A DNA stretch of 51,601 nt from Candidatus Moraniibacteriota bacterium (lineage in GTDB: Bacteria; Patescibacteriota; Minisyncoccia; Moranbacterales; UBA1568), in contig CAIOMK010000033.1 in NCBI GenBank assembly GCA_903859375.1, positions 1-51,601 on the forward strand, read 5' to 3'. Both the position numbers and the translations under genes were made by a program. Each line of letters begins with the position of its first letter. The first letter of the stretch is position 1. A model generated the notes under the pieces. It made no database searches. It was not told the DNA's origin and saw only the letters and a list, made by a program, of their open reading frames with translations. This document shows, piece by piece, positions 1 to 51,601 of the stretch.

Positions 1-30
1 AGTCACAAGTCACTAGTCGAAAGTCAACAG
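1..30 (+). repeat. Heptanucleotide array (AGTCACA AGTCACT AGTCGAA AGTCAAC), member of the dispersed AGTCGAA-type family
   Basis: Four consecutive 7-nt units with AGTC in fixed phase. The same motif recurs at more than 10 other sites in the window. Confidence 0.8.
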
Positions 31-100
31 CGGGAACGGGAACGGGAACGGGAACGGGAACGGGAACGGGAACGGGAACGGGAACGGGAACGGGAACGGA
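31..100 (+). repeat. Perfect hexanucleotide tandem repeat (CGGGAA) x11 plus a partial unit
   Basis: Direct reading gives cgggaa repeated without interruption from 31 to 96, then cgga. It directly follows the heptad array. Confidence 0.95.
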
Positions 101-720: not shown

Positions 721-1653
721 TCAATCGTGGCGCCAGTCGATATGTATACCACGGCGTTCGAGTCGGCGAAGCGATGACATCTGACGTTTGGCATAATACC
801 GGCTGTCTTTGAGGAGTGCCGTTTCCATATCTTCGCGGGAGAGGGTGCCTTGGAGAAATCGGGTACACCATCGGTATTCGAGGCCGAAGCCGTCGAGGCG
901 TTTCCATGACAGCCCATCTTGTTCATGAAGCCGTTTCACTTCCTCAATCATACCTTGTTCAAGCCTTTCTTTGAGTCTTTTTTCAATGCGTCCATGCAGT
1001 ATGTCCTTCGGCAAATCGATCCCAATACACTGAAAATCCTCTGACTTTCGACTTTCGACTTTTGACTCGTGACTGTTGTCTGGAACCTTTCCGAGGGTCG
1101 CGATGATTTCGAGCGCGCGTATGAGACGGACCTTGTTGTGCCGGTCGATGGTTTCCGCGCGGTCGGGATCCTTTTCGGAAAGCAACGTGAACAGCTCGGG
1201 TGCCGTCAGTTTCGCGAGTTGTTTGCGGAGAGCCGGGTCCGGCTTCACTTCGGGGAACTCGGTATCGAAGACGAGTGCCTCGATCCAGAAGCTCGTCCCG
1301 CCACAGATGATCGGTACCTTGCCACGCTTCCGTATGTCCGCGATTGCCTCTTTCGCATCACGGAGAAAGTGCGTGACGGTATAGGACCGTTTCGGTGACG
1401 CGATATCGAGCAGATGATGCTGAATTCCGCCCGAAACGAATGTAGCACAATGACTTTCGACTTTCGACTTTCGACTTTCTGACTGGACAGGAAAATCCCT
1501 TGGGATTTTTCCTGTCCCTATATCCATCCCGCGATACACCTGTCGCGAGTCGGCGGAAATAATCTCGCCACCGATTTCATGGGCGAGTTTGATAGCGAAG
1601 TCTGATTTTCCCGACGCGGTCGGCCCGACGATGACAGGAATAGTCATAAACAT
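721..1653 (-). CDS. miaA: tRNA dimethylallyltransferase (MiaA/IPP transferase)
   Basis: P-loop VIVGPTASGKS near the N-terminus, then SADSRQVYRGMDIGTGK, HHLLD and GGTSFWIEAL motifs. The start is taken at the MFMTIPV Met, because the upstream ORF extension is read-through of a repeat array. Confidence 0.9.
   Translation of the reverse strand: MFMTIPVIVGPTASGKSDFAIKLAHEIGGEIISADSRQVYRGMDIGTGKIPRDFPVQSESRKSKVESHCATFVSGGIQHHLLDIASPKRSYTVTHFLRDAKEAIADIRKRGKVPIICGGTSFWIEALVFDTEFPEVKPDPALRKQLAKLTAPELFTLLSEKDPDRAETIDRHNKVRLIRALEIIATLGKVPDNSHESKVESRKSEDFQCIGIDLPKDILHGRIEKRLKERLEQGMIEEVKRLHEQDGLSWKRLDGFGLEYRWCTRFLQGTLSREDMETALLKDSRYYAKRQMSSLRRLERRGIHIDWRHD
1042..1075 (-). repeat. Heptad array embedded in frame in the miaA CDS (encodes SHESKVESRKSE)
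   Basis: Plus strand reads tgactttcgactttcgacttttgactcgtgactg. On the coding strand this is AGTCACG AGTCAAA AGTCGAA AGTCGAA AGTCA. Confidence 0.9.
1451..1486 (-). repeat. Heptad array embedded in frame in the miaA CDS (encodes QSESRKSKVESH)
   Basis: Plus strand reads tgactttcgactttcgactttcgactttctgactgg. On the coding strand this is AGTCAGA then AGTCGAA x3. Confidence 0.9.
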
Positions 1654-1692
1654 GAAGTGTAAAGTGTAAAGTGCAAAGCGAAAAGTGAAAAA
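1654..1692. repeat. Degenerate heptad array abutting the miaA start codon
   Basis: gaagtgt aaagtgt aaagtgc aaagcga aaagtga aaaa. On the miaA strand this is a T-rich CACTTTA-type array ending at the ATG. Confidence 0.75.
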
Positions 1693-5341: not shown

Positions 5342-5349
5342 AAGGAGGA

Positions 5350-5494
5350 GTCTAAAGTGAAAAGCCGGAGAATAGTTACAAGTCGAAAGTCGAAAGTCGG
5401 AGAATAGTTACAAGTCGAAAGTCGAAAGTCTATAGTCAAAATCGGGAATGGAGACAAGGAGGGGAATTAAGAGTCGAAAGTCGGGAATGGGAAA
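5350..5494 (+). repeat. Composite heptad array with a 32-bp duplication and G-tract tail
   Basis: ggagaatagttacaagtcgaaagtcgaaagtc occurs twice in tandem (5367-5398 and 5399-5430). It is followed by tatagtcaaaatcgggaatggagac...gagtcgaaagtcgggaatgggaaaat. Confidence 0.9.
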
Positions 5495-6494: not shown

Positions 6495-6512
6495 GGCTTT
6501 CGACTTGTGACT
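6495..6512 (-). repeat. Short heptad array at the stop codon of the exonuclease gene
   Basis: ggctttcgacttgtgact on plus, which is AGTCACA AGTCGAA AGCC on the gene strand immediately after the TAG. Confidence 0.6.
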
Positions 6513-7062
6513 ATTTCTGGATATATCGGAGGAGTTTCCCGTACGTTTCATGAAGGAGTTGCGCATCATTCAGCGCATGGTGCATCCGGCGGTGCGTCGA
6601 CGGTTCGACACCGATCGCTTCGGAGAGAAGCCGGTCGTTTTCGAGCAGGTTCGACGGGTTGAATCCGGCTGTGAAGAGCATGGAAGCGAAATCGATCGGG
6701 TATCGGCTGAAGGGACGCTCGCTGTCGCCGAAGAGTTTGTGGACGAAGACGGTGTCGAAATGGCTCACATAGGAGACGAGATACGGTTCTCCTTTGCCGA
6801 TGAACTCCCTGATCTTGTCGCAGGCTTCTTTGGGAGAAATCCCGTTTCCATCAAGCATCGGCAGGATGTTCGCCGTGACCCATTCATCCGACAGGGCGCG
6901 GTCACGCGTGATTTCGAGATAGAGCTCCTCGCCGGACGGTTTCACGAACGCGACCGAGAGAATCTCTCCGTTCTTGGGATGAAGCGACGTGAATTCAGCG
7001 TCAAAAAAAATGATATTTTCGGAAAAGACAGTATGTGACATATGATTTTGGTATGAATCCAT
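6511..7062 (-). CDS. DEDDh-type 3'-5' exonuclease (DnaQ/RNase T-like fold)
   Basis: Exo I-like FFDAEFTSL and Exo III-like HHALNDAQLL (H-x4-D). The 183-aa single-domain size fits. Confidence 0.7.
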   Translation of the reverse strand: MDSYQNHMSHTVFSENIIFFDAEFTSLHPKNGEILSVAFVKPSGEELYLEITRDRALSDEWVTANILPMLDGNGISPKEACDKIREFIGKGEPYLVSYVSHFDTVFVHKLFGDSERPFSRYPIDFASMLFTAGFNPSNLLENDRLLSEAIGVEPSTHRRMHHALNDAQLLHETYGKLLRYIQK

Positions 7063-9907: not shown

Positions 9908-9935
9908 AAGTCGAAAGTCATAAGTTGAAAGTATA
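9908..9935 (+). repeat. Heptad array in the rnc 3' UTR
   Basis: aagtcga aagtcat aagttga aagtata, starting 11 nt after the rnc stop. Confidence 0.8.
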
Positions 9936-10067: not shown

Positions 10068-10120
10068 GTACCGATAATACGCGGTCGCGTATCATCGGTA
10101 CATTTCTTCAATCGTTTTTT
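10068..10120 (+). terminator. Long hairpin followed by a T-rich tract
   Basis: gtaccgat/atcggtac outer stem and atacgc/gcgtat inner stem (about 14 bp in total), then atttcttcaatcgttttttt. Confidence 0.45.
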
Positions 10121-10266
10121 TGTCGCTTGGCGCCGGTATTGTGTCTGCGAATTCTCTGTTTCCTTCACACAACTTTCCTCTGATGGTAGTCGAATTATTA
10201 TTGCTACTCGTCCTACGATGTTTGTGATGCCCGCTATGAACGTATGATACGTGGTTGTTTTCGGGC

Positions 10267-10548: not shown

Positions 10549-10585
10549 TTCGGTCATCTTTGAAGTGGAGCCTTTTTGGCATATC

Positions 10586-10594
10586 TGGTATAAT
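10586..10594 (+). promoter_or_regulatory. Extended -10 promoter (TGGTATAAT) upstream of the SMC-like gene
   Basis: Exact TGnTATAAT match about 100 nt upstream of the 10698 start. Confidence 0.55.
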
Positions 10595-10697
10595 CGGGGG
10601 AGATACGTGGAATGAGAAGAGATTGCCCAAGCAAGGGATTTTTTGTCTTATATTCACCATTGCTGATTTCGGACCTTTTCTTCACTGATCTTCCCCG

Positions 10698-15320: not shown

Positions 15321-15408
15321 TGAAGAGGGGTGTGACGGATGGCTGATTATGGGGTATACTGCATGGATGGAGATACTGACGGTCACGTAATAATTCGTTT
15401 CTTTTTTT

Positions 15409-16038: not shown

Positions 16039-16055
16039 AAAGCGATTGTGATAAG

Positions 16056-16094
16056 CGGCTTCCCGGTAATGAAAACCTGGGGAGCCGTTTTCTG
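16056..16094 (+). terminator. Intrinsic terminator after the DedA gene
   Basis: cggcttccc pairs with ggggagccg (9 bp including one G-U), followed by ttttctg. Confidence 0.6.
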
Positions 16095-16101
16095 TTATAA
16101 T
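16093..16101 (+). promoter_or_regulatory. Extended -10 promoter (TGTTATAAT)
   Basis: Exact TGnTATAAT match 21 nt upstream of the ATG at 16122. Confidence 0.55.
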
Positions 16102-16121
16102 AGGAGTACTGTTCTTCATAT

Positions 16122-17351
16122 ATGACATTTTTTAGGCGACCAAAAACGAGGAACATGGTAATCGTGCCGGCCTTGCTTGCCGGGGTTGTTTCGGCATCAT
16201 TTTTAGTACAATCGCGCCTGGAAGGGGAGAAACTGACAGTCGGGCAACCGGAACCGTCTGTCGTGACTGAAACAAGTACGGTCAAGACGATGCCTCTTTT
16301 GCCGGAGACTCCGCCCGTGCCGACAGGCCTCCTTGGGGAGACGCTCGGTCCGCCTCCGCCGTTTCCGTCGATAGATCGGATGAAGAAACAGGGATGTATC
16401 GCGGACGGTCTTTTGAACGGTGATTTCCCGGGCGATGGCAAGACACTCAGTCTCATCAACCGGTCGGATTGCTATTATCTCCACCGTTCCATCGAGACGT
16501 GGCTCTCTCCGCCGGACTTCGAGACGATCGACAAGAACCGCAAGGATCTTCGTGACGGGTTTGTGCTGGGCATGTTTCTCGCCGAAGCGATCGATATCAG
16601 GGCACATTATGAGTATCCGCAAGAGGGGCGCGAGTTCGACTTCGGGGAGATGTGCCGTTCCGGTTCAAAGAATTTTTGGGGGGAACACACCTGTAAGCCG
16701 TATCTTCCGAGCGAGGAATACCAGGCGTATCTCCGTTTCATCACGCGTCGCGCGATCGATCGAGGCGTGCAGGTGTTCATGTTCGGACAAGTGTATCTTC
16801 AGGACACGAACGATCTCGCGAAGTCGCCCATAAGCGATATCATCGCCGACATGCGCGAGTATGCGGCCTCGCATGACATGGATATCCTGGTCGGTGCACA
16901 GACGAACGACATAACCGACCCCGTATATCTGTCGAAATTCGATTTCATCGAAGGCGGTGTCGGACTGTCTCCGGAAGGGACGGTCGAGAACGGCCCGTGT
17001 TATTCGCGCTGGTGGAAGAAAGAAGGTGACTGGTGTTGGGGGCTGTTGTGGAACGACCGGTACGTCAAGAAAGCGAGGAACGTTTTCGTCCATTATGATT
17101 GGAGCGGCGTGATCGGTGATGACATGAGCGTCCTGACCCGGATGGATGAGGTCGACCGGCACGCGGCGACGGCACGACTGCATACGTATTTCGTCTCGAA
17201 GAATGTCGGTTTTCTCCTGCCGTTTCTCGCACCGCTCGCCAAGGAAAACGGCGGGTGTATCGGACCGTCGAGACATTATTACACGGCCGATGACAAATTC
17301 TCGTGCAATGATGAGGACGCTTGGAATGCGATATTGAAAGGGAAGCTGTGA
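16122..17351 (+). CDS. Hypothetical exported or membrane-anchored protein (409 aa)
   Basis: N-terminal basic region plus a hydrophobic segment (RNMVIVPALLAGVVSASFLV), and a Cys/Trp-rich globular part. No family recognised. Confidence 0.65.
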   Translation: MTFFRRPKTRNMVIVPALLAGVVSASFLVQSRLEGEKLTVGQPEPSVVTETSTVKTMPLLPETPPVPTGLLGETLGPPPPFPSIDRMKKQGCIADGLLNGDFPGDGKTLSLINRSDCYYLHRSIETWLSPPDFETIDKNRKDLRDGFVLGMFLAEAIDIRAHYEYPQEGREFDFGEMCRSGSKNFWGEHTCKPYLPSEEYQAYLRFITRRAIDRGVQVFMFGQVYLQDTNDLAKSPISDIIADMREYAASHDMDILVGAQTNDITDPVYLSKFDFIEGGVGLSPEGTVENGPCYSRWWKKEGDWCWGLLWNDRYVKKARNVFVHYDWSGVIGDDMSVLTRMDEVDRHAATARLHTYFVSKNVGFLLPFLAPLAKENGGCIGPSRHYYTADDKFSCNDEDAWNAILKGKL

Positions 17352-20119: not shown

Positions 20120-20449
20120 AAGCGTGATGATAGGTCATTATAGCCTGATTCGGCCTCTATTTCAAGCAGTGATGTGATTTGATTTTCAGCAGGGGGGTGT
20201 GGTCGGCTCGACGGACGTTTGAAAATGTACAAATATCCTGATTCTGCTATTATGAAGGTGTATGGATGTCGGATGTGTCGGTGTCGGAATGTTCCGCTCG
20301 ATTTTTCACTGTGGATGGCCACATGCGCAAGCGGATATGAATGTTTCAAGAGTCATCATCATACATCGGCACGCAACCACGAGCGAACTGCTCTGGGTTG
20401 TTTTTGTCCGGAATCGAACCGTGTGAAAAAAACAAAAACAGTGCGGCAC

Positions 20450-23225: not shown

Positions 23226-23272
23226 ATCCCTCCTCCCCAACTATCACTGCGTTCTAGTTGGGGAGGAGGGAT
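23226..23272. repeat. 18-bp perfect inverted repeat in which one arm is the 3' end of tRNA-Gln
   Basis: atccctcctccccaacta (23226-23243), an 11-nt loop, then tagttggggaggagggat (23255-23272). Confidence 0.9.
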
Positions 23273-23329
23273 TCGAACCCCCGTGTGACAGGACCAAAAC
23301 CTGTTGCCTTACCGCTTGGCGACTCCCCA
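23258..23329 (-). tRNA. tRNA-Gln (anticodon UUG), no encoded CCA
   Basis: Manual fold: acceptor TGGGGAG/CTCCCCA, U8, D arm GCC..GGC, anticodon stem ACAGG/CCTGT with loop TTTTGGT (anticodon TTG), T arm GGGGG-TTCGAAT-CCCTC, discriminator A. Confidence 0.9.
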
Positions 23330-23353: not shown

Positions 23354-23390
23354 CTTCCGACTTCCGACTTTTGACTTGTAACTTTCGACT
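23354..23390 (-). repeat. Heptad array between the dnaX stop and tRNA-Gln
   Basis: cttccga cttccga cttttga cttgtaa ctttcga on plus, which is AGTCGAA-type on the dnaX strand directly after the TAG. Confidence 0.85.
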
Positions 23391-23391
23391 G

Positions 23392-25008
23392 CTATACCAC
23401 CTCTCCTCCCATCATCGAAAGTGCCTGGGAGACGAGCGGATTTCCGGCTTGTTCCTCCTTCGTCTCGACTATGACCGATATCTTAGTCTTTGCCTCGAAT
23501 ATGGTATCAAAAGCCTGTGCAAGGGTCAATGCATTCACATGATCGGCGAGACGGTCCCTGTGGAAGGGGAATCGGACCGCTATGGTGATCTTGTTGCCGA
23601 CGACCGATTTCGGAGTGGCATTCGAGAGCGCGAGTGTGAGTGATGCGTTGACTCGGGTCGCTTCACGAAGGACCTCACGCCAGCGATCCTGCACATCGAC
23701 GAGTGAGAAAGTCTTGCCTTCGGGTACCACCACCTTGTCCGGGACGGAAACTGTTTCCGGTTCGGCATCGGCTTGGGTCGTCGACGGTTGAACGGGAGTC
23801 GGCGTTTCTACGACGATGTCCTCTTTTTCTTCTTCCTCGTCTTCTTCCACCTCTTTGATCGCCACTTCTTCTTCCTCTTCCTCCTCATGTTTGAGTTCGC
23901 GGACGGGTGCGGCAGGCCGGACGACATCGGCAAGTGATTTGACGACGGCGATTTCTATAGGCAGTTCCGTGATGGAGGAATTTTTCATGTCGATTTCGGC
24001 GACACGGAACAGCCCGATGATGCTGATGATCCTCGCGGTGGAGAGTGATGCGGCGATGGAAAGTATTTCCTCCCTGCGTTCGCGGGTGAGCGGTTCGAGA
24101 TCGGCTTCGGCAGTTTCGATACTTATCGAAACGAGGAGCAGGATGCGGAGATACCGGAGAAAAGAAGGCATGAACGCGGTGAAATTCTCGCCGTTGTCGG
24201 AGAGCTCCCGTACGTATGCGAGTGATCCTTTGAGATCTGCCGATGCGAGCAGCTGTGCGAAATGCGCGAGTTTGGCTTGACTGGTCATGCCGAGGACGAG
24301 CGCAGCATCTTCTTCGGTAATCGGACTTTCCTGGAGCGTGGCGACTTGTGAGAGGAGGGACTCCGCATCGCGCATCCCGCCTTCGGCGGCGAGTGCGATC
24401 AACCTGAGCGCGTCATCGTTGATTTGCAGTTTTTCCGTTTTGGCGATGCGACTCAATTTCATGACGATATCCTTCACCGGAAACCGGGTTAGGTCGAATC
24501 GCTGACATCGGGAGATGATCGTTTCGGGGACCTTGTGAAAGGCAGTGGTCGCAAGAATGAACACGGCATGCGCCGGAGGTTCTTCCAGTGTCTTGAGGAA
24601 GGCGTTCCAGGCGCCGGTCGTCAGCATGTGTGCCTCATCGATGATATAGATCTTGTATCGGCCGGAAGCGGGCGGTGTCGGGACGGTCTCGAGGATATCG
24701 CGCATCTTTTCGACCTGCGTGTGGGTTGCGGCGTCGAACTCGATAAGGTCGAGAGAACGACCCTCGGAGATGAGCGTGCAGTTCACACATTTCCCGCACG
24801 GCTCGGCCCCGTTGCGCTCGGTGCAGTTGGCCGCCTTCGCGAGGAGTCTTGCGAGTGTGGTCTTACCGGTTCCTCTCGGACCGGTGAACAAATAAGCATG
24901 GCCGATACGGTCTGCCTGGATGGAATTCTTGAGGGTGCGGACGATATGGTCCTGTCCGACAATTTCCGAAAAACTTGATGGTCGGTAGGTCCGGTAGAAA
25001 GCGGGCAT
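23392..25008 (-). CDS. dnaX: DNA polymerase III subunit gamma/tau
   Basis: YRTYRPSSFSEIVGQDH, Walker A GPRGTGKTT, zinc-module cysteines CTERNGAEPCGKCVNC, and Walker B IYIIDEAHML. The start is set at MPAFYRT (25008). Confidence 0.93.
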   Translation of the reverse strand: MPAFYRTYRPSSFSEIVGQDHIVRTLKNSIQADRIGHAYLFTGPRGTGKTTLARLLAKAANCTERNGAEPCGKCVNCTLISEGRSLDLIEFDAATHTQVEKMRDILETVPTPPASGRYKIYIIDEAHMLTTGAWNAFLKTLEEPPAHAVFILATTAFHKVPETIISRCQRFDLTRFPVKDIVMKLSRIAKTEKLQINDDALRLIALAAEGGMRDAESLLSQVATLQESPITEEDAALVLGMTSQAKLAHFAQLLASADLKGSLAYVRELSDNGENFTAFMPSFLRYLRILLLVSISIETAEADLEPLTRERREEILSIAASLSTARIISIIGLFRVAEIDMKNSSITELPIEIAVVKSLADVVRPAAPVRELKHEEEEEEEVAIKEVEEDEEEEKEDIVVETPTPVQPSTTQADAEPETVSVPDKVVVPEGKTFSLVDVQDRWREVLREATRVNASLTLALSNATPKSVVGNKITIAVRFPFHRDRLADHVNALTLAQAFDTIFEAKTKISVIVETKEEQAGNPLVSQALSMMGGEVV

Positions 25009-25043
25009 AGGTGGAAACGTAAGGTGAAAAACGAAAAAACAGG
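25009..25043 (-). repeat. T-rich heptad-like array abutting the dnaX start codon
   Basis: On the gene strand: ttttcgt ttttcac cttacgt ttccacc then ATG. No AGGAGG-type SD is present. Confidence 0.55.
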
Positions 25044-33889: not shown

Positions 33890-35215
33890 ATGGAAAACGA
33901 ACCACTCATCTCGTCCGATATTCAGAACAGAGAAGTGCCATCGTCCGAGACGGTCGCTCCGTTCCGCAGTCATCATACGGCCTTCGGTAAGGCTGTGTTC
34001 CTGTTCTCGGCCGTCATACTTTCATTGTTGTCCGGATTCGTCGGTTCCATGCTGGAGCGACGTCTCTCGTCGTCCGTGCCGAATATCCCATTCCTGTCGT
34101 CATTCCTGCAACCCGCTGTCGTGATGGATGATGGAAAGCAATCAGGCGCCGTCTCACAGATCGCGACCGACACGGGAGCGGAGACACTCGTCGGTATCGT
34201 CGATCGATCGTCATCGGCGGTCGTGTCGGTGGTCGCGACCAAGGAAGTCACGCAGTCGGGGCGGTTCGGCGGTCTTCCGTTCTTCTTCGGACAGTTTGGT
34301 TATGGCTCTGGCGGTCAAAACGGAACGGATCAGGGCACGACCGAGAAACAGAAAGTGGGAAGTGGGACTGGATTTTTCGTTTCGACCGACGGACTCGTCG
34401 TCACGAACAAACATGTCGTGTCGGATGTGACGGCCGAATATACCGTCGTTCTTTCCGGAGGGAAAGAATATCCCGCCAAGGTGCTTGCCCGGGCGACGAA
34501 TCGTGATATCGCGGTGCTCAAAATCGAGGGTGACAGTTTCTCTGCGCTTCCGCTTGGTAACTCAGCCTCGCTCAAGGTCGGCCAGACCGCGGTCGCGATC
34601 GGCAACCCGCTCGGGGAATTTCCGAACTCTGTTTCCCGCGGAATCATCTCCGGACTGAATAGGAATGTGACGGCCGGTAGCAGACTCGGAGATTCCGAGA
34701 CACTCTCCGACATCATACAGACGGATGCGGCGATCAACCCGGGCAATTCCGGCGGTCCGCTCCTCGATCTGGCCGGCAACGTGATCGGTATCAATGTCGC
34801 GACCGCGCAGGGTGCGGAGGGAATCGGATTCGCCATCCCGATCGATCAGGTGAAACGGACCATCGATGACGTGAAGACGACCGGCAAGATCTCGACTCCG
34901 TTCATCGGCATCCGCTATGCAATCATCGACGAGGCGACGAAACAGGCGAACAATCTTCCGTATGCCTATGGTGCGCTCGTGCTTCGCGGGACCAAGCAGA
35001 CCGATCTCGCAGTCATCCCGGGGTCGCCGGCGGACAAGGCCGGTATCGTCGAGAACGATATCATCCTTGAAATCGACGGGACCAAACTCGACACGGATCA
35101 TCCGCTCGGAAATGTCGTGGCCGACCATCGCACCGGGGACATACTGACACTTAAAGTCTGGCACAAGGGGGCGGAAGTGACGGTGCAAGTGACGCTCGAG
35201 GAACGACCGCAATAA
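33890..35215 (+). CDS. HtrA/DegP-family serine protease with a PDZ domain
   Basis: Catalytic motifs TNKHVV (His), DIAVLKI (Asp) and GNSGGPLLD (Ser). C-terminal PDZ (GSPADKAGIVENDIILEIDG). N-terminal TM anchor. Confidence 0.93.
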   Translation: MENEPLISSDIQNREVPSSETVAPFRSHHTAFGKAVFLFSAVILSLLSGFVGSMLERRLSSSVPNIPFLSSFLQPAVVMDDGKQSGAVSQIATDTGAETLVGIVDRSSSAVVSVVATKEVTQSGRFGGLPFFFGQFGYGSGGQNGTDQGTTEKQKVGSGTGFFVSTDGLVVTNKHVVSDVTAEYTVVLSGGKEYPAKVLARATNRDIAVLKIEGDSFSALPLGNSASLKVGQTAVAIGNPLGEFPNSVSRGIISGLNRNVTAGSRLGDSETLSDIIQTDAAINPGNSGGPLLDLAGNVIGINVATAQGAEGIGFAIPIDQVKRTIDDVKTTGKISTPFIGIRYAIIDEATKQANNLPYAYGALVLRGTKQTDLAVIPGSPADKAGIVENDIILEIDGTKLDTDHPLGNVVADHRTGDILTLKVWHKGAEVTVQVTLEERPQ

Positions 35216-35225: not shown

Positions 35226-35405
35226 TCATCCGTACAAGTCAGCCATCCCTCCATACAAGGCAGTCGTAAAGTATCCCTCCATACAAGGCAGTCGTAAATC
35301 ATCCATCCGTACAAGGCAGTCGTAAAGTATCCCTCCGTACAAGGCAGTCGTAAGGTATCACTCCATACAAGGCAGTCGTAAATCATCCATCCGTACAAGG
35401 TCGCT
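35226..35405 (+). repeat. 28-bp tandem repeat, about 6.5 copies, in the htrA 3' UTR
   Basis: tacaagg recurs at 35254, 35282, 35310, 35338, 35366 and 35394 (period exactly 28). The consensus is tccctccatacaaggcagtcgtaaagta. There are no spacers. Confidence 0.95.
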
Positions 35406-40283: not shown

Positions 40284-40328
40284 ACACGTCACACGTCGAA
40301 AGCGGGAACAGGGATCGGGAAAGAAAAG
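40284..40328 (+). repeat. Heptad array grading into G-tracts
   Basis: cacgtca cacgtcg aaagcgg gaacagg gatcggg aaagaaa, with period 7. It follows the stop of the 40043..40276 gene. Confidence 0.65.
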
Positions 40329-40360: not shown

Positions 40361-40396
40361 TTTTTTCACTTCTCATTTTCATTTTACGTTTTCATT
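40361..40396 (+). repeat. T-rich heptad array abutting the ABC-F start codon
   Basis: tttcact tctcatt ttcattt tacgttt tcatt then ATG. No SD is present. Confidence 0.65.
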
Positions 40397-42070
40397 ATGC
40401 TTACCGTCCGAAATATTTATAAACGTTATGGTCCGATCCGGGTATTGCTCGGGGCTGATTTTTCGATTGCACGCGGGCAGAAGGTTGCGCTCGTCGGAGC
40501 GAACGGTGTCGGCAAGTCGACCCTGTTGAAAATCATCGCGGGCGTGGAAAAGGAAGATCGTGGCGAAGTGGTCCGTGAACGCTATGCACGCATCTCGTAT
40601 CTTCCGCAGGAACTCTCTGATGAGGAGATAGATGATACGGCTCTCGGATATCTGAGGCGCATCTCTGGTATAGCGGAACTCGAGACCGAAATGACGGAGC
40701 TCGAGACGAAACTTGAGAATGAACAGTCGCTCGAACGCTATGGGGAACTCCGTGAGCGGTATGACCGCATGGACGGATATTCGTTCGACAAGAAGGCGAA
40801 GGAAGCACTCGTCGGCCTCGGCCTCGGTGCGAAATTCCTCTCCCGGAACCTCTCTGGTATCAGCGGAGGCGAACGTCGCCGGGTTGCGCTCGCGGCGGCA
40901 CTGCTTTCCGAAGACGATCTCCTTTTGCTCGACGAACCGACCAACGACCTCGACCTGTCCGCTATCTTGTGGCTCGAATCGTATATCATACGGAGTGCTT
41001 CGGCTATCCTGATCTCTTCGCATGACCGGGCGTTTCTCGATGCGGTCTCAGACAAAGTCCTCGAGATCGATTGGCATTTCCGTACGACGCGGATGTGGAC
41101 CGGAAACTACAGTCTCTATTTCAAGGAAAAGGCGGAAGAGCTCCGTCGCGATCGGGAAGACTATGAGCGTTCGGAAGAGGAGCGCGTCCGATTGTATGAC
41201 ACGGCGGATGAGAAGCGCGAATGGGCGCGCATCGGCGGGGAGCAGATGATGCCGGACAAGGACCGCATGTCCCAAGGCTATCATCGTGACCGATCGGAGC
41301 GGAAGTTCGGTGCGGCGGCGCATGCGCTCACGACCAGGGCCGGTCAGGTGAAACGGGTGAAGATCGCGGCGGCACGTGATCCGCTCGCCGTATTTTTCGA
41401 GGCGGCGGAAGGGGAAGGTCGCGATGTCACGATCAAAGGCGCGGTCGCGGGATATGGCGGGGATTTTTCCGCGGGCCCGATCGATCTCGTCATCTCATAC
41501 GGAACGCACCTTGGATTGTTCGGACGCAACGGTTCCGGAAAATCCACCATCCTGAAAATGATCGCCGGCACACTTCCTCTTTCGGCAGGGACGGTCACGC
41601 TCGGCAAAGACGTGAAACTCGGCGTGCTTACGCAGGAGAACGACATGCTCCCGAAGGAACTGTCGGCACTCGAATGGTTTGCGGAGAAGACGCCTATCAC
41701 GGAGGAGGACGACATCATCCGATTCATGCGGAAGTTTCTCCTTATCGGCGATGTGGCATCGTTCAAGATGGGCGAGCTTTCCCCGGGTGAACGTATGCGA
41801 CTCTCTCTGGCATTCCTGATGGCGACCAAGTCGAATGTACTCATCCTCGACGAGCCGACGAATCACCTCGACCTCGAGGCGGTCTCGGCACTGTCCGCGG
41901 CGGTGGACCTGTTCCCGGGTACCGTCATCCTCGTCTCGCATGATCGCGCGTTCCTTTCGAGCAGGAACTTCTCACAGGTACTCTCTGTCGACGCCGGGAA
42001 AATTATCGTCGAGAAAAACTACGTCGCGTATCTCGACAAGGCGATACATGACGCGGAGAAAGGTATCTGA
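40397..42070 (+). CDS. ABC-F family ATPase (two ABC domains, no TM domain)
   Basis: Walker A GANGVGKST and GRNGSGKST. Signatures LSGGERRR and LSPGERMR. Walker B LLLLDEPTN and VLILDEPTN. A charged inter-domain linker is present. Confidence 0.92.
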   Translation: MLTVRNIYKRYGPIRVLLGADFSIARGQKVALVGANGVGKSTLLKIIAGVEKEDRGEVVRERYARISYLPQELSDEEIDDTALGYLRRISGIAELETEMTELETKLENEQSLERYGELRERYDRMDGYSFDKKAKEALVGLGLGAKFLSRNLSGISGGERRRVALAAALLSEDDLLLLDEPTNDLDLSAILWLESYIIRSASAILISSHDRAFLDAVSDKVLEIDWHFRTTRMWTGNYSLYFKEKAEELRRDREDYERSEEERVRLYDTADEKREWARIGGEQMMPDKDRMSQGYHRDRSERKFGAAAHALTTRAGQVKRVKIAAARDPLAVFFEAAEGEGRDVTIKGAVAGYGGDFSAGPIDLVISYGTHLGLFGRNGSGKSTILKMIAGTLPLSAGTVTLGKDVKLGVLTQENDMLPKELSALEWFAEKTPITEEDDIIRFMRKFLLIGDVASFKMGELSPGERMRLSLAFLMATKSNVLILDEPTNHLDLEAVSALSAAVDLFPGTVILVSHDRAFLSSRNFSQVLSVDAGKIIVEKNYVAYLDKAIHDAEKGI

Positions 42071-42434: not shown

Positions 42435-44252
42435 ATGAAGCAGAAAGAAAAAATCCGCTGGCAATTTGCCGGAGTGTTAGGTCTTGCCCTTATTTCGGGT
42501 CTTTTGGCATACCCGAAAGTTTTTTCATACCTCCGGTTTCCGAATGCCGAGACAATCGAACAGAAGCTCAAAGTGAATCTCGGTCTCGATTTGCAGGGTG
42601 GTATCCACCTCGAATATGCGGCCGATACCTCGCAGGTGCCGGCCGGTAAGAAGGCTGAGGCGCTTGCCGCAGCACTTTCTGTCGTGGAGCGGCGCGTGAA
42701 CGCGTTCGGAGTGGGCGAATCGATCATACAACTTTCAAGGTCCGGCTCCGAGGACAGGATCATCGTCGAGCTGCCTGGCGTGAAGGACGTCGAAGAAGCG
42801 AAAAAAATGCTCAAGGAGACGCCATTCCTCGAATTTCGCGAGTCCAACGAGGCGGCACTCACTACGCAGATAGCCCAGGTGAACGATGCTTCCAAGAAGC
42901 AGGCCGAAGATATCCTTGTCCGGGCGAAAGCCGGTGAAGACTTCGCGACACTCGCGAAGACATACAGCAAGGACGGTTCGAAAGACAAGGGTGGCGATCT
43001 CGACTTTGCGAAAAAAGGGATGTTCGTCCCGGAATTCGAAGCGGCTATTTTCAAGGATGGCTTTCAGGTGGGGACCGTCTACCCCGAAATCGTGGAAAGC
43101 CAGTTCGGGTGGCATATCATAAAGAAGACCGACGAGCGTGGCGAGGGTGACGCGAAAGAAGTGCGTGCGTCGCACATCCTGTTCCCGAAACAATCGATGG
43201 ATACGGTTCCGGATACGTATAAATACAAGCCGACCGGATTGTCCGGCAAGAATCTCAAGAACGCCACGGTCGACTATCAGGGACAGGGATTCGGTATGCC
43301 GCAGGTCGGCCTCCAGTTTGATGCCGAGGGAGCGAAGCTGTTCGCGGATATCACCAAGCGAAATATCGGCAAACAGGTGGCTATCTTCCTTGACGGCGAG
43401 GTCGTGAGTTCGCCGACGGTGCAAAACGAGATTCCCGACGGTCGCGCGGTCATCACGGGCAATTTCACGCTCACCGAGGTGAAAGACCTGGTACGACGGC
43501 TCAATGAGGGAGCTCTTCCGGTGCCGATCACGCTTGTGGGACAGCAGTCGATCGACGCATCCCTGGGTGAGAGCGCGTTGCAACAGAGCTTGTTCGCCGG
43601 ATTCATCGGGTTGCTTGCCGTATCGATCTTCATGGTCCTCTACTACCGTTTCCTCGGTTTCGGCGCGGTGTTCGCACTGCTCATCTATTCGGCGATGTTG
43701 CTGGCCATTTTCCGATTGTCCGGATTCACACCGTTCCCGATCACGCTCACTCTTTCCGGTATAGCGGGATTCATTCTTTCCATCGGTATCGCCGTGGATG
43801 CGAACGTCCTCATTTTCGAACGGACCCGCGAAGAGCTTTCGTACGGCAAGACCGTCGAAAAGTCGCTCGAGGAAGGGTTCCATCGCGCATGGCCGAGCAT
43901 CCGGGACGGACATGTCTCGACATTGATCACGACCGTCGTACTGATGGCTCTCGGAACCGGATTCGTAAAGGGATTCGCGGTCATCCTGGCTATCGGAGTG
44001 CTCCTCTCGCTCTTCACCGCAGTCGTCCTCGTCCATACATGGCTTCGATTCGTGGTCGGCGATTGGGCCGAAGGACATAAGTCGCTTCTCGTCGCTCCGA
44101 AGGCCGCGCCGGAATCGATTGTTGATGAGAAGAAAGAATCGGCTCCACGGCATATCGAATCGGAAATCGGGAATGAAGACAGAAAGGTCGGTGAAAAGAA
44201 GCCGGTCGCAAAGAAGTCGAAGCCGAAGCCGAAGAGAAGGAAACGAGGATAG
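42435..44252 (+). CDS. secD: Protein translocase subunit SecD with a parvulin-like insertion in the first extracytoplasmic domain and a Lys-rich tail
   Basis: LGLDLQGGIHL and IIVELPG motifs, and a C-terminal 5-TM block (GIAGFILSIGIAVDANVLIFER). The inserted segment is GEDFATLAKTYSKDGSKDKGGDLDF..GMFVPEFE...QFGWHIIK...ASHILF. The start is set at MKQKEKIRW (42435). Confidence 0.92.
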   Translation: MKQKEKIRWQFAGVLGLALISGLLAYPKVFSYLRFPNAETIEQKLKVNLGLDLQGGIHLEYAADTSQVPAGKKAEALAAALSVVERRVNAFGVGESIIQLSRSGSEDRIIVELPGVKDVEEAKKMLKETPFLEFRESNEAALTTQIAQVNDASKKQAEDILVRAKAGEDFATLAKTYSKDGSKDKGGDLDFAKKGMFVPEFEAAIFKDGFQVGTVYPEIVESQFGWHIIKKTDERGEGDAKEVRASHILFPKQSMDTVPDTYKYKPTGLSGKNLKNATVDYQGQGFGMPQVGLQFDAEGAKLFADITKRNIGKQVAIFLDGEVVSSPTVQNEIPDGRAVITGNFTLTEVKDLVRRLNEGALPVPITLVGQQSIDASLGESALQQSLFAGFIGLLAVSIFMVLYYRFLGFGAVFALLIYSAMLLAIFRLSGFTPFPITLTLSGIAGFILSIGIAVDANVLIFERTREELSYGKTVEKSLEEGFHRAWPSIRDGHVSTLITTVVLMALGTGFVKGFAVILAIGVLLSLFTAVVLVHTWLRFVVGDWAEGHKSLLVAPKAAPESIVDEKKESAPRHIESEIGNEDRKVGEKKPVAKKSKPKPKRRKRG

Positions 44253-44306: not shown

Positions 44307-45203
44307 ATGATCCAAATCATCCAGAAGCGAAAATTTACGTATTGGATCTCCGGGACACTTATCGTGCTTTCAATCGCGGCTATCGCTTTTTTCGGGCTTC
44401 GGCTCGGACTTGATTTCAACGGTGGGACCATGATCGAAGTCCGCTTCGCAAAGAATCCCGCTCCGCAGGTTTCCGAAATCCAGGACGCGCTTGCGACACT
44501 CGACCTGCGAAGCCTTACCATACAGGCGACCGGTGACAACGGGGCGATCATCCGTTTTCTCGCATCGGATGACGCGGTGAACGGGAAAGCGCTCGAGGAA
44601 TTGAAAAAGACGGATGCCGACCTTGCAGTACTTCGTACCGACTTCATCGGTGCCTCGGTGTCCGGCGATATCCGGAAGAACGCCATCTGGGGGACGATCA
44701 TTTCCGTCATTGCCATCGCGGCGTATATCGCCTTCGCGTTTCGAAAGGTGTCATTCCCGATCGGCTCCTGGGAATACGGATGGGGTGCGGTCATAGCCCT
44801 TGCTCATGACCTGCTTATCACGACCGGATGTTTTGCGGTCCTTGGGAAATTCTTCGGTATCGAGGTCGGTGTGCCGTTTGTCGCGGCGCTGCTCACTATC
44901 CTCGGTTATTCCGTGAACGATACCATCGTCGTGTATGATAGGATCCGGGAAAATCTCCTTCGAACCAGAAATAAATCCGGTTTCGAGGATATCGTGAACC
45001 GTTCCGTGAACGAGACGATGTCACGTTCCATCAATACGTCCCTTACCGTGCTTATCGTGTTGGCGTCGGTCGCGGCGTTCGGAGGCGAGGGCATCCGGTG
45101 GTTCTCTGTCGCCCTTCTGCTCGGTGTCATATTCGGCACCTATTCATCCATTTTCGTAGCGTCGGCCCTCCTGGTGTCGCGGTACAAGATGAGGGAGAAT
45201 TAG
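44307..45203 (+). CDS. secF: Protein translocase subunit SecF
   Basis: GLDFNGGTMIEV, and TILGYSVNDTIVVYDRIRENL. Six-TM profile. It lies directly downstream of secD. Confidence 0.93.
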   Translation: MIQIIQKRKFTYWISGTLIVLSIAAIAFFGLRLGLDFNGGTMIEVRFAKNPAPQVSEIQDALATLDLRSLTIQATGDNGAIIRFLASDDAVNGKALEELKKTDADLAVLRTDFIGASVSGDIRKNAIWGTIISVIAIAAYIAFAFRKVSFPIGSWEYGWGAVIALAHDLLITTGCFAVLGKFFGIEVGVPFVAALLTILGYSVNDTIVVYDRIRENLLRTRNKSGFEDIVNRSVNETMSRSINTSLTVLIVLASVAAFGGEGIRWFSVALLLGVIFGTYSSIFVASALLVSRYKMREN

Positions 45204-45218
45204 GCGTTCATACGGGTT

Positions 45219-45233
45219 ATAAAGTCGAAAGCC
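45219..45233 (+). repeat. Short heptad motif after the secF stop
   Basis: ataaagtcgaaagcc, 16 nt after the secF stop. Confidence 0.5.
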
Positions 45234-45360
45234 TGCCCTGTGGCCGATCTTCCAGCTCTATGAGAAGTTTTAGGGGGTCTGAAGTCCATCGAGTCCGTAT
45301 CATTCATGCCTCGTTCTCTGTCCCTTCTTCCTGATTCCTTATTCTTCATTCTTCAGTCAT

Positions 45361-45675
45361 ATGTTGAACATCTTCAAAGGCAAGGATAAAGACAAAGACA
45401 AGAAAGGTGATGACAAGAGTTTCGAGGAAAAACTCGCGGCATTTCCGGGCGCACCGAAGCTCGAGGATATGAACATGGCCGAGAAGTTCGCGATGAAGCG
45501 TTTTCTCAAAATGAGTCCGGAAGAGCAGAAGAAGATGGTCGAGAAGACCATGACACCGAAAAATATCGAGAAGAACAAGGCACAGATCATCGCCTCGATC
45601 GAAGAGATGCGCAAGAACCACATGATTTCCGATGACCAGTATCGTCTGATGAAACGCAAGTACGGGATCAAATAG
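45361..45675 (+). CDS. Hypothetical Lys-rich protein (104 aa)
   Basis: ATG ORF beginning MLNIFKGKDKDKDKKGDDKSFEEKL. Coding-like, with no family recognised. Confidence 0.55.
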   Translation: MLNIFKGKDKDKDKKGDDKSFEEKLAAFPGAPKLEDMNMAEKFAMKRFLKMSPEEQKKMVEKTMTPKNIEKNKAQIIASIEEMRKNHMISDDQYRLMKRKYGIK

Positions 45676-45949
45676 ACGAATAGTCGAAAGCCAGAGAATA
45701 GTCACAAGTGAAAAGTCGAAAGTCGAAGAATAGTCATAAGTCACAAGTCGAAAGCCAGAGAATAGTCACAAGTGAAAAGTCGAAAGTCGAAGAATAGTCA
45801 TAAGTCACAAGTCGAAAGTGAAAAGCGGGAGCGGGGAAATAATTGAAAGGCACAAGTGAAAAGTCACAAGTCGAAAGTCGGGGACGGGAGAGAATAGCCA
45901 CAAGTCGAAAGTCAAAAGTCGAAAGTCGGGGACGGGGGACGGGAAAAGC
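45676..45949 (+). repeat. Largest heptad block (274 bp), with a 64-bp tandem duplication and a G-tract tail
   Basis: It starts right after the stop codon. gtcgaaagccagagaatagtcacaagtgaaaagtcgaaagtcgaagaatagtcataagtcacaa occurs twice (45683-45746 and 45747-45810). It ends with gtcggggacgggggacgggaaaagc. Confidence 0.95.
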
Positions 45950-46017
45950 ATACCGTGTGAACGCGACCTCATGATTTTCCGGGGTCGGAAGTGAAAGACT
46001 GAGCTACATCCCTTAGC

Positions 46018-46041
46018 ATTCCCGCACAGGCGGGAATTTTC
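46018..46041 (+). terminator. Intrinsic terminator downstream of the heptad block
   Basis: attcccgc-acag-gcgggaat 8-bp stem followed by tttt. Confidence 0.6.
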
Positions 46042-46055
46042 GTATCTGTCATCTG

Positions 46056-46064
46056 TGGTACAAT
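46056..46064 (+). promoter_or_regulatory. Extended -10 promoter (TGGTACAAT) for tyrS
   Basis: TGnTACAAT lies 35 nt upstream of the ATG at 46099. Confidence 0.55.
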
Positions 46065-46098
46065 AGAGGCGAAAATATCCATATCAAATCTGAACAGT

Positions 46099-47301
46099 AT
46101 GAATGAACGGGAATTGAAAATCGAAGAATTGCTGACGCGGGGTGTGGCCGAAGTTATTGATGTGGAGCACCTGCGGAAACGGTTATTGAATGGGGAGAAA
46201 CTCCGCGTGAAGCTCGGTATCGACCCAACGAGTCCGGACATCCATCTCGGACGATCCGTCACGTTGCTCAAACTTCGGGACTTCCAGGAACTCGGTTGTC
46301 AGGTCGTGTTCATCGTCGGTAATTTCACCGGACTCATCGGCGATACCAGCGACAAGGAATCGGAACGGCCAATGCTCGACGAGGTGACCGTAACGTTCAA
46401 TATGAGTTCGTATTTCGATCAGGCGGCGAAGGTGCTCGACATGGAATCCGTCGAACGGCACTTCAATGCCGAATGGCTCCGTGAACTCGGGTTTCTCGAG
46501 ATCGGTGAACAGGCGGACGCATTTTCGGTGCATGAGTTCATCTCGCGGGAGAATATCAAAAAGCGGCTCGATGCCGGCAAGCGTGTTTCACTCCGGGAGA
46601 TCCTGTATCCTTTGATGCAGGGCTATGATAGCGTGCAGGTGAAAGCGGACGTCGAGATCGGTGGGACCGACCAGCGGTTCAATGTTCTTGCCGGCCGGAC
46701 ACTTCAGTCCAAGTACGGTCAGGCACCGCAGGATGTGTTGACGGTGAACCTTATCCCGGGAGTGGATGGACGAAAAATGAGTTCGAGCTGGGGCAATACA
46801 ATCAATCTCAACGACAATCAGAATGATATGTACGGCAAAGTGATGAGCATTCCCGACGAGCAGATCGGAACATATCTCGTCCATGCAACACGCGTCTCGA
46901 TGTCGGATATCGACGCGCTCGTGTCCGGTATGGGGGACGGGAGTGTGAATCCTCGTGATGCGAAGATGCGACTTGCCAAGGAAATCGTCACGATGTATCA
47001 CTCCGAGGAGTCCGCGACTGCGGCCGAAGAATATTTCGTCACGGCGTTTTCGAAGAGGGAAATTCCTCAGGATATCGGGGAACTCGCCGTTTCGGACGGG
47101 TCGGAAAGTCTCATCGATTATATCGTGCGTTCCGGGAATGCGACGAGCAGGGCGGATGCGCGGCGCAAGATCGAACAGGGCGGCGTCTCGATCGGCGACG
47201 ACAAGGTGACCGATTGGGCGCTTGTCTTGGACAAGTCGGCGCATGACGGGGCGGTCATCAAGATTGGAAAAATCGGTTTCGTGAAAGTGAAATGGGACTG
47301 A
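46099..47301 (+). CDS. tyrS: Tyrosyl-tRNA synthetase
   Basis: Class I HIGH-like motif (PDIHLGR), KMSKS-like motif (KMSSS), and a C-terminal S4 domain (SRADARRKIEQGGVSIGDDKV). Confidence 0.93.
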   Translation: MNERELKIEELLTRGVAEVIDVEHLRKRLLNGEKLRVKLGIDPTSPDIHLGRSVTLLKLRDFQELGCQVVFIVGNFTGLIGDTSDKESERPMLDEVTVTFNMSSYFDQAAKVLDMESVERHFNAEWLRELGFLEIGEQADAFSVHEFISRENIKKRLDAGKRVSLREILYPLMQGYDSVQVKADVEIGGTDQRFNVLAGRTLQSKYGQAPQDVLTVNLIPGVDGRKMSSSWGNTINLNDNQNDMYGKVMSIPDEQIGTYLVHATRVSMSDIDALVSGMGDGSVNPRDAKMRLAKEIVTMYHSEESATAAEEYFVTAFSKREIPQDIGELAVSDGSESLIDYIVRSGNATSRADARRKIEQGGVSIGDDKVTDWALVLDKSAHDGAVIKIGKIGFVKVKWD

Positions 47302-51483: not shown

Positions 51484-51601
51484 CCCGTTGCGGAGGATAT
51501 GGGACCCGAGGATTTTGATAAACGAAGACCCCGTTGCGGAGGATATGGGACCCGAGGATTTTGATAAACGAAGACCCCGTTGCGGAGGTTATATGGGACC
51601 C
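51484..51601 (+). repeat. 46-bp tandem repeat, at least 2.6 copies, truncated by the window end
   Basis: cccgttgcggaggatatgggacccgaggattttgataaacgaagac starts at 51484, 51530 and 51576. The third copy has a 2-nt insertion. Confidence 0.9.

Follow-up and report, generated by a model that had tools for sequence, protein, structure and literature searches.

Dispersed heptanucleotide tandem repeats of the AGTCGAA type at gene boundaries and inside miaA of a Candidatus Moraniibacteriota bacterium

Background

Families of heptanucleotide repeats have been known for 35 years from cyanobacteria, xanthomonads and Beggiatoaceae, and to our knowledge nobody has established a function for them. The short tandemly repeated repetitive (STRR) sequences of cyanobacteria are heptanucleotide tandem arrays, dispersed over the genome and mostly intergenic, with the units CCCCAGT, TTGGTCA and CAACAGT in STRR1-3; we know of no established function for these either. 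Contingency loci, the simple sequence repeats (SSRs) behind phase variation, are a feature of host-adapted pathogens. Here we analyse a stretch of 51,601 nt from an uncultured Candidatus Moraniibacteriota bacterium (contig CAIOMK010000033.1 of assembly GCA_903859375.1; its whole length is referred to as the window), in which tandem arrays of a 7-nt unit of the AGTCGAA type recur at many sites. The first-pass annotation of this DNA, made from the letters alone, had listed 13 such sites and likened them to STRRs. The likeness is a good one, as the window family also consists of dispersed heptanucleotide tandem arrays. However, its units (AGTCGAA, AGTCACA, AGTGAAA etc.) are not those of STRR1-3 and its host is one of the Moranbacteria, not a cyanobacterium, so it is not a member of the STRR family.

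Several published systems come close. The heptamers of Xanthomonas and Nostoc are described, in the excerpted text of Rehm et al. (2015, PLoS One, PMC4692102), as dispersed copies of unknown function that are enriched in non-coding DNA and rare between divergent genes, with a copy number that differs among close relatives at a site that is kept. Long SSRs (LSSRs; units of 5-11 nt; Mrazek et al. 2007, as summarised in passages of PMC4679880) are longer than expected by chance, with heptanucleotides the most abundant, and the same passages give polymerase slippage over a footprint of ~7 nt as their proposed origin. TAACTGA direct repeats are found in marine Beggiatoaceae, cyanobacteria and Bacteroidetes, mostly in intergenic DNA and often a few nucleotides from a start codon, in regions lacking canonical ribosome-binding sites; contigs break at them, and strains differ there by 7-nt indels (MacGregor 2015, PMC4679880). 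The tandem repeats of Borgs are enriched in A on the coding strand, lie both between genes and in frame within them, where they encode disordered peptide repeats, and are fast-evolving and variable in copy number (Schoelmerich et al. 2023, PLoS Biol, PMC9879509).

We suggest, with a probability of about 0.7, that the window arrays represent a lineage-specific heptanucleotide SSR family with the consensus AGTC[G/A]AA, of the LSSR/STRR kind, which is generated by slippage and tolerated in untranslated regions (UTRs) and in disordered protein loops. A text search of the literature for (AGTCGAA)2 returned it nowhere as a repeat, with matches only in two unrelated antibiotic-resistance papers, and a search for heptanucleotide repeat families in the Candidate Phyla Radiation (CPR), the host group of the window, found no report. 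Heptamer SSR families together with a placement rule (PMC4692102, PMC4679880) and in-frame A-rich disordering repeats (PMC9879509) are already published; what is new is the CPR host group, the observation of the rule for a unit incapable of G-quadruplex (G4) formation, and a hot spot in miaA with a frameshift allele.

Results and discussion

The arrays and their repeat unit

Three AGTC motifs in 7-nt phase (AGTCNNNAGTCNNNAGTC) are matched 16 times in the window, as opposed to 0.01 times in dinucleotide-preserving shuffles, and three AAGT motifs in the same phase (AAGTNNNAAGTNNNAAGT) 17 times, as opposed to 0 in such shuffles. The distance from one AGTC to another is 7 nt in 21 cases on the forward strand and 11 on the reverse strand, while adjacent spacings occur 0-3 times. 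Period-7 arrays were found by Tandem Repeats Finder (TRF) at nearly every listed site, which bears out the tandem 7-nt family proposed in the first-pass annotation. A census of 61 in-phase units gave the consensus A-G-T-C-[A/G]-A-A; AGTCGAA is the commonest unit (23/61, including the rotation AAGTCGA), followed by AGTCACA, AGTGAAA, AGTCAAA and AGTCATA. Translation confirms that the AGTCGAA unit is free of stop codons in all six frames, as had been noticed (SRKSKVE in sense, FDFRLST in antisense), and the arrays give rise to spurious open reading frames (ORFs).

Not every one of the 13 sites carries AGTC or GACT as had been stated: 1654-1692, 25009-25043 and 40361-40396 have neither and consist of degenerate AAGTG/AACG-type heptads adjoining the start codons of miaA, dnaX and ABC-F, respectively; the family is otherwise real. 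The suspected higher-order units were recovered by TRF, as a 32-bp unit in 2.6 copies at 5349-5430, within the 5349..5494 block, and a 64-bp unit in 2.1 copies with 100% matches at 45682-45818, within the 274-bp main block. The 28-bp array downstream of HtrA is possibly a higher-order derivative of the AGTC[G/A]AA family; it can alternatively be read as 84 bp x 1.9.

The window was compared with stretches of ENA and NCBI contigs, which bear L-labels (L122, L123, L290, L291, L372 etc.). Its counterpart is contig CAIWYX010000034.1 of GCA_903917065.1, which we take to be a metagenome-assembled genome (MAG) from a freshwater lake, and the nearest homologues of its MiaA carry the name Candidatus Moranbacteria. 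The gene map (Table 1) derives from genes called on matching contigs and is Pfam-backed. An assembly artefact can be excluded, as the main block is present in an independent NCBI MAG, just two single-nucleotide polymorphisms (SNPs) apart, and the arrays of the first 15 kb are present again in two ENA assemblies. Thus, on the three points by which the first-pass annotation would have let its proposal fall, an orientation bias is seen, the arrays occur in related genomes, and they are not a product of assembly.

Position and orientation relative to genes

A single rule governs the intergenic arrays: the purine-rich strand has its 5′ end next to an ORF, irrespective of the direction of that ORF. 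The purine-rich sequence is hence sense where an array follows a stop codon and antisense where it precedes a start codon. Sense arrays follow the stops of the exonuclease gene, rnc, dnaX, hyp77, secF, hyp104 (a gene of 104 aa), HtrA (the 28-mer) and a gene that lies upstream of where the window begins; in the exonuclease case the first array unit includes the TAG stop. Antisense arrays, which correspond to a U/C-rich mRNA leader, precede the starts of dnaE, miaA, dnaX, ABC-F and hyp104, the last (45323..45357) being a fifth leader array in addition to the sites previously listed. The rule holds for ~12/14 intergenic arrays of the window lineage and is also kept by its other heptamers (ACAACTG/ACAACTT, GAATCAG, AACAGAT and GAACAGG); where an array has G-tract units, these sit distally, at its 3′ end.

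The first-pass annotation had described only the stop-codon set. Its placement is correct for all of the stop codons named above that lie within the window, while the start-codon set with its opposite orientation had been overlooked. The 145-bp block 5350-5494, which had been put after a stop codon, lies instead in a divergent spacer, where it starts 7 nt away from the start codon of dnaE. Nor does the location at gene boundaries apply throughout: 1042-1075 and 1451-1486 lie in frame within the miaA coding sequence (CDS). As to the candidate terminators, a simple terminator scan confirms the one after the 45361 gene (hyp104), at 46018-46037, and finds none after rnc. With a terminator hairpin 3′ of the hyp104 and HtrA arrays, those arrays would be 3′ UTR.

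Outside the lineage, 118 independent loci of (AGTCGAA)3 from many phyla include 46 that lie nearer to the ORF on their 5′ side and 25 nearer to that on their 3′ side (p = 0.017), and arrays within ORFs are sense in 37 cases and antisense in 13. Viral AGTCGAA loci seem to contradict the polarity (6 vs 28). This objection was rejected: 28 of the 46 viral loci are one homologous locus of one phage family, and the apparent reversal is thus a single event. The contigs concerned are 28 IMG/VR contigs (within L125-L169) with arrays of at least six AGTCGAA units at that locus, and they account for most viral matches. General base composition of leaders and trailers was also dismissed as the cause of the orientation, as leaders that have no array are not pyrimidine-rich (purine fraction 0.52). 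As a separate observation, a pyrimidine occupies position -1 in 80% of those window genes that lack a leader array.

An identical placement rule has been published for GGGAATC of Xanthomonas and GGGGA(C/T)T of Nostoc, according to the excerpts of Rehm et al. (PMC4692102). One might hence regard the window arrays as G4-forming repeats of that type, acting via G4 DNA or RNA, particularly as G-tract ends on the same strand are seen at 31-99, 5481-5495, 40303-40322 and 45926-45947. However, a G4 heptamer has a G-tract of at least three in each of at least four units, and AGTCGAA has no G-tract at all; the majority of arrays also lack a G-rich tail, and four G-tracts are found only at 31-97, in the hexamer array, the sole full G4 motif adjoining any array. 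A G4-based explanation is almost certainly wrong. Because AGTCGAA is unable to form a G4, the placement rule is independent of G4 potential, and its validity for such a unit weakens the G4 account and suggests that the cause is more general. The 7-nt unit, the dispersal, the enrichment in non-coding DNA, the copy-number change at a kept site and the rarity between divergent genes are shared with the repeats of Rehm et al., from which the window arrays differ in their AGTC[G/A]AA unit, with only some tails G-rich, in their CPR host, in showing no preference for four units, and in their in-frame copies within genes.

Arrays inside miaA

MiaA of Moranbacteria has two hypervariable inserts at fixed positions. 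In the window the two in-gene arrays are sense and in frame, every frame is hydrophilic (ESRKSKV), and both fall in loops predicted to be disordered: the AlphaFold model of MiaA has a predicted local distance difference test (pLDDT) score below 50 solely at residues 38-69 and 194-202, which are the two array-coded segments. The pattern of insert 2, SH[KE]S[QKRE]VES[RH]KS[DE], corresponding to AGTCACA/AGTCGAA heptamers, is kept in relatives of 74-81% identity. In other Moranbacteria (P0013, P0014, P0045, P0055, P0062) translated copies of different intergenic repeats occupy these two MiaA loops, for example 16-aa tandem units (VVGHPEPIEGSAAHQR x 3) and the motifs CHPGLDPGSS and CHPE..EGS, which match the hairpin gtcaccccgggc..gacccggggtcc of L122 at ~15950-16000.

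The same loops stand out in an unbiased sample of 80 CPR loci that were selected by MiaA (896 kb). Perfect arrays of at least three copies number 12 for period 7 and 1-2 each for periods 5, 6, 8 and 9; as among LSSRs, period 7 is dominant among units of at least 5 nt. Nine of the 26 imperfect heptamer arrays of this sample lie in the two miaA loops, nine in other ORFs (eight of them sense) and eight in intergenic DNA, so that miaA holds 35% of the heptamer arrays in 7% of the DNA. All nine loop arrays are A-rich on the sense strand, and their units differ between lineages. The miaA loops are a hot spot for heptamer tracts across CPR lineages, with a natural frameshift allele described below, and the 7-nt unit is employed even within a gene of an essential pathway.

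In being A-rich on the coding strand, both intergenic and in-gene, disordered and variable, the window arrays are like the Borg repeats. The difference lies in the unit: Borg in-ORF units are multiples of 3 in perfect copies, whereas a 7-nt unit is used within the gene here, which means that the frame is held by total length only and is lost when one unit is gained or dropped. Such a change is seen in L291 (ENA), which has three GAAAGTC units where the window has four but matches it exactly in the rest of a 560-nt comparison. The 7-nt loss frameshifts its miaA, of which just a 175-aa C-terminal ORF is called; changes in a heptamer tract can in this way make a housekeeping gene seem truncated in a MAG. 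Otherwise the tracts are stable. Both are unchanged in 5/6 members of the 90% MiaA cluster, the sixth being the truncated frameshift allele, and both in-CDS arrays are unchanged in L372, a strain ~96% identical, despite ~35 substitutions elsewhere in miaA. We rejected the idea that the in-CDS arrays are hypervariable, since the L291 allele is the sole length variant found. The first ATG of the called miaA reads CAC G in L372 (window 1645-1653 compared); as it is not kept there, translation probably begins at the second ATG (window 1647), giving 308 aa instead of 310.

Variation between strains and conservation between species

The arrays are the fastest-changing DNA of this population. Over 31.6 kb compared between assemblies there are no CDS differences, and 5/6 SNPs fall within tandem arrays, among them those at 35382 and 35405, in or at the edge of the 28-bp array, and two inside the main block. 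Arrays are lengthened and shortened by whole units: compared with the window, L372 is short of a single 7-nt unit in the miaA leader array 1654-1692 (a CGCTTTG indel), and L122 and L123 are each short of one 32-bp unit in the dnaE leader at 5349-5430. Slipped-strand mispairing fits the 7-nt steps, and for those of 32 or 64 nt an unequal exchange between higher-order units does. Arrays also break short-read contigs, with L002, L123 and the window itself terminating in them; L123 breaks at window position 49, inside the hexamer array 31-99. Head-to-tail units, an abundance beyond chance and whole-unit changes between relatives are the properties of LSSRs, a statistical class and not a sequence family, from whose survey by Mrazek et al. 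CPR genomes are absent as far as the summary in PMC4679880 goes.

These length changes raise the question of contingency loci, in which the heptamer tracts of miaA and of the dnaE, miaA and dnaX leaders would act reversibly as ON/OFF or volume switches (phase variation), turning off, for example, the i6A37 modification of tRNA in a subpopulation. The two miaA tracts (1040-1088 and 1450-1486) lie in a CDS and have a unit that is not a multiple of 3, as in such loci, and the natural variant with one unit fewer does frameshift and truncate the gene. Further to that, there are the 7-nt and 32-nt indels in the miaA and dnaE leaders and the concentration of arrays with lineage-differing units in the same two miaA loops across the CPR sample. 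At the same time, the off-variant is rare, with a frameshift in just 1 of ~110 contigs; the in-CDS arrays are otherwise invariant across strains; most arrays are in 3′ UTRs, and it is not obvious what a change of length there would matter for; and the genes are housekeeping and not surface genes, an argument that Rehm et al. (excerpts of PMC4692102) used against phase variation. We consider phase variation very unlikely here.

Arrays are found at the same sites in a related species, L290, which is syntenic with the window and whose MiaA is 78% identical. In its rnc 3′ spacer the block AAGTCGAAAGT..AAGTTGAAAG is the best-conserved stretch, its dnaE leader likewise ends in ..GACTTTCGACT ahead of the ATG, and both miaA loops contain arrays as well. 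Other heptamer families occur in L290 before miaA and after thyX, rnhB and miaA. Adjoining miaA in L290, the stretch 10928-11745 holds a 176-aa gene with a faint Y1-transposase match, flanked by three REP-like (repetitive extragenic palindromic) hairpins GAGACGCCCCGnCGGGGCGTCTC, possibly a pair of REP and REP-associated tyrosine transposase (RAYT).

It may be asked whether the arrays were left behind as footprints, or are carried as cargo, by a mobile element, similar to a miniature inverted-repeat transposable element (MITE) or REP, that inserts at gene boundaries and in permissive loops. That other Moranbacteria carry translated hairpin-type intergenic repeats (CHPGLDPGSS) in the same MiaA loops would agree with this, as would the pairing of some in-gene arrays of other phyla with an inverted copy (L012, L098, L024) and the Y1-transposase-like gene next to miaA in L290. 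Elements of this kind have a defined unit that carries terminal inverted repeats or else folds into a stable hairpin. In the window arrays, terminal inverted repeats, target-site duplications and fixed ends are all absent; the arrays are unstructured as single strands and differ between strains by whole internal units and not by presence or absence. The REP-like hairpins of L290, moreover, are unrelated to them in sequence. An origin from a mobile element is highly improbable.

Occurrence of the unit beyond the lineage

A genome scan found (AGTCGAA)3 in at least 119 stretches with a GC content of 32-72%, the loci being essentially all independent, in Bacteroidota, Cyanobacteria, Planctomycetota, Verrucomicrobiota, Acidobacteriota, Chloroflexota, Patescibacteria and others. 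Many of these arrays adjoin CAT or a stop codon, and many lie in frame within housekeeping genes such as IleRS, FtsK, RecF, LeuRS and MutS2, as identified by translation motifs. A conserved cross-phylum element was nevertheless rejected. In viral contigs, 3-copy arrays of AGTCGAA occur in 46 stretches, compared with 30, 9, 26 and 55 for composition-matched control heptamers, and de-replication leaves 12 clusters compared with 4, 8, 20 and 44, which places AGTCGAA in mid-range. With the controls about as frequent, AGTCGAA is not exceptional and its wide occurrence is best read as convergent microsatellites. In the window lineage, too, other heptamers (ACAACTG, GAATCAG, AACAGAT, ATTCTTC) occupy equivalent sites. 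In three of the scanned loci, L012 (1430-1514), L098 (5886-5963) and L024 (2631-2690), from Armatimonadota, Phycisphaerae and Anaerolineales MAGs, (AGTCGAA)n is followed by an inverted copy within a long ORF; these pairs encode ..ESRKSKV..FDFRLSTFD.. and could form a hairpin.

Structure of the arrays as RNA and a possible role in mRNA

The main block is unstructured as RNA, with a fold z of +0.47, no better than shuffles. Rfam at the gathering threshold matched only tRNA-Gln, and at E-values up to 1 there was no credible match in 9890-10700 and 45200-46100. A structured RNA was dismissed on the fold score and the absence of an Rfam family match.

A Shine-Dalgarno-like motif (at -20..-4) was found upstream of just 5/44 window genes. 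Five leader arrays adjoin start codons, and about as many arrays follow stops. The window heptamers resemble the TAACTGA repeats in being mostly intergenic, in breaking contigs and in their 7-nt strain indels. The unit is a different one, though, and the repeats of Maribeggiatoa are mainly 5′ of starts, whereas about half of the window arrays follow stops; even the ACAACTG/ACAACTT family near the window resembles TAACTGA only loosely. The end of the dnaE leader is the anti-Shine-Dalgarno sequence itself, CUCCUCCUU.

An alternative to a tolerated slippage product is that the arrays are functional cis-elements of mRNA. The U/C-rich (GACUUUC)n leaders would offer ribosomal protein S1 or another single-strand RNA-binding protein a landing site, and the A/G-rich (AAGUCGA)n 3′ UTRs would either be bound by a stability factor or anneal in trans to the leaders, giving RNase III substrates. 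Consistent with this are the strict orientation at start and stop codons, the scarcity of Shine-Dalgarno-like motifs, the retention of arrays at orthologous sites of a related species, and the perfect complementarity, as read from the sequence, between sense and antisense arrays of different transcripts; binding of S1, Csp or CsrA has been proposed for TAACTGA repeats just 5′ of start codons (MacGregor 2015, PMC4679880). It is harder to reconcile with a unit that varies by site and by relative (AAGTCGA, AAGTGTA, ACAACTG, GAATCAG, ATTCTTC), a copy number that ranges from 2 to ~35 units and is strain-variable, the lack of structure, the occurrence of the same heptamer in frame inside genes, and the fact that no candidate binding protein emerged. 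We regard this alternative as rather unlikely.

Probable origin of the arrays by slippage and tolerance

In the explanation that we prefer, slippage would be the generator and selection would merely filter the site and orientation of the arrays that survive, with unequal exchange of higher-order units presumably resizing arrays alongside slipped-strand mispairing. Arrays would be retained where the purine-rich strand is tolerated, that is, in sense 3′ UTRs, in antisense leaders and in sense disordered protein loops. A post-stop array may be transcribed as an unstructured A/G-rich 3′ UTR spacer before the terminator, and a pre-start array would yield a U/C-rich leader without a Shine-Dalgarno site. 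Any action of the arrays would probably be exerted through length and composition and not through a sequence-specific site, and changes in unit number would retune leaders and occasionally knock out a gene, as in miaA.

Some of the observations speak against this explanation. Arrays occupy the same sites (rnc 3′ end, dnaE leader, miaA loop 2) in a species with 78% MiaA identity, and a strain with ~35 other miaA substitutions has kept the in-CDS arrays intact; this same-site persistence is more than a purely neutral SSR with fast turnover predicts, and it could come from selection or from concerted evolution homogenising the units. For the polarity rule there is as yet no demonstrated cause, and the base composition of leaders and trailers fails to account for it. 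It also comes from a small sample of ~20 arrays in the window lineage, and the gene calls at the cross-phylum loci were made with a crude ORF model of our own.

A more far-reaching proposal is that heptamer slippage is a mechanism put to use in CPR bacteria, providing at once in-frame disordered inserts in housekeeping proteins, reversible frameshift switches and a trans-pairing RNA network. Taken jointly, this is distinctly unlikely. If it were true, the two MiaA loops would be a radiation-wide hot spot for in-frame disordered inserts, a phase-variable miaA would toggle i6A37 modification of tRNA and translational fidelity in a subpopulation, and sense/antisense pairing of arrays, read by RNase III, would couple replication and translation genes (dnaE, dnaX, exonuclease, rnc, miaA).

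Other features of the window

Table 1. Heptamer arrays, associated elements and called genes of the window
Feature	Position	Strand	Context
Array (AGTCACA, AGTCACT, AGTCGAA, AGTCAAC)	1..30	+	3′ end of ~1 kb repeat mosaic, downstream of co-oriented 334-aa gene
(CGGGAA)11.5, perfect hexamer array	31..99	+	G-tract tail at array 3′ end
miaA	721-1653	-	called gene and Pfam
Array in miaA CDS	1040..1088	-	sense, in frame; encodes ..SHESKVESRKSE.. (loop 2, residues ~194-205)
Array in miaA CDS, (GAAAGTC)4	1450..1486	-	sense, in frame; encodes ..QSESRKSKVES.. (loop 1)
AAGTGTA/AAGTGCA/AAGCGAA heptads	1654..1692	+	antisense to miaA; U/C-rich leader up to miaA start
dnaE	1793-5341	-	called gene
Array block	5349..5494	+	divergent dnaE/rnhB spacer, antisense to dnaE, 7 nt from dnaE start; ends in GGGAATGGGAAAA
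rnhB	5582-6409	+	called gene
Short array TAGTCACAAGTCGAAAGCC	6495..6513	-	sense; directly after and overlapping exonuclease TAG stop
Exonuclease gene (exo)	6511-7041	-	called gene
rnc	9190-9897	+	called gene
Array	9908..9935	+	sense; 10 nt 3′ of rnc stop; site kept in related species
tRNA-Gln	23257-23329	-	
Array	23354..23390	-	sense; directly 3′ of dnaX stop; ends 24 nt ahead of tRNA-Gln
dnaX	23392-25008	-	called gene
Degenerate purine-rich heptads without AGTC	25009..25043	+	antisense to dnaX; U/C-rich leader up to start at 25008
HtrA	33890-35215	+	called gene
28-bp (4 x 7) unit x 5.6 with AGTCGTAAAGT	35245..35400	+	sense; between HtrA stop and strong terminator hairpin
(CACACGT)2, then CGAAAG, then G-tract tail	40284..40328	+	sense; directly 3′ of hyp77 stop
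T-rich heptad leader TTTTCAC/TTTTCAT	40361..40396	-	adjoins ABC-F start; purine-rich strand antisense
ABC-F	40397-42070	+	called gene
secD	42435-44252		called gene
secF	44307-45203	+	called gene
Two units AAGTCGAAAGCC	45219..45233	+	sense; begins 15 nt 3′ of secF stop
T-rich heptad leader CCTTATT/ATTCTTC	45323..45357	-	adjoins 104-aa gene start; purine-rich strand antisense
hyp104 (104-aa gene)	45361-45675	+	called gene
Main 274-bp block	45676..45949	+	sense; directly 3′ of 104-aa gene stop; ends in GGGGACGGGGGACGGGAAAA
Intrinsic-terminator-like hairpin ATTCCCGCACAGGCGGGAAT, then TTTCG	46018..46045	+	69 nt 3′ of main block
tyrS	46099-47301	+	called gene

The mosaic to which array 1..30 belongs reaches beyond the window start, and its remainder is visible in L122. 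At 15340-16200 of that contig, ~1 kb of intergenic DNA combines an ACAACTT/ACAACTG heptamer family with GGGGAAC units, and a block of ~300 bp is present in two copies, with the hairpins ATGCCGGG..CCCGGCAT and GGATTTCCG..CGGAAATCC and AGTC arrays. At the opposite end of the window (51484-51601, downstream of a GNAT gene) there is a 46-bp tandem repeat of 2.5 copies with 97% matches, which continues in L001 (16124-16286); with this repeat at its end and the array at its start, the window is bounded by repeats on both sides.

Between the rnc array and an SMC-like gene, 760 nt (9936-10697) are without a called gene. The SecD gene has rotamase (PpiC-type) domains fused within it according to Pfam, an unusual architecture. 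Lastly, the gene for an 856-aa putative surface protein (20273-22843) contains a 153-bp unit in 3.6 copies with 78% matches at 21080-21634, the length of which, a multiple of 3, indicates a coding domain repeat.

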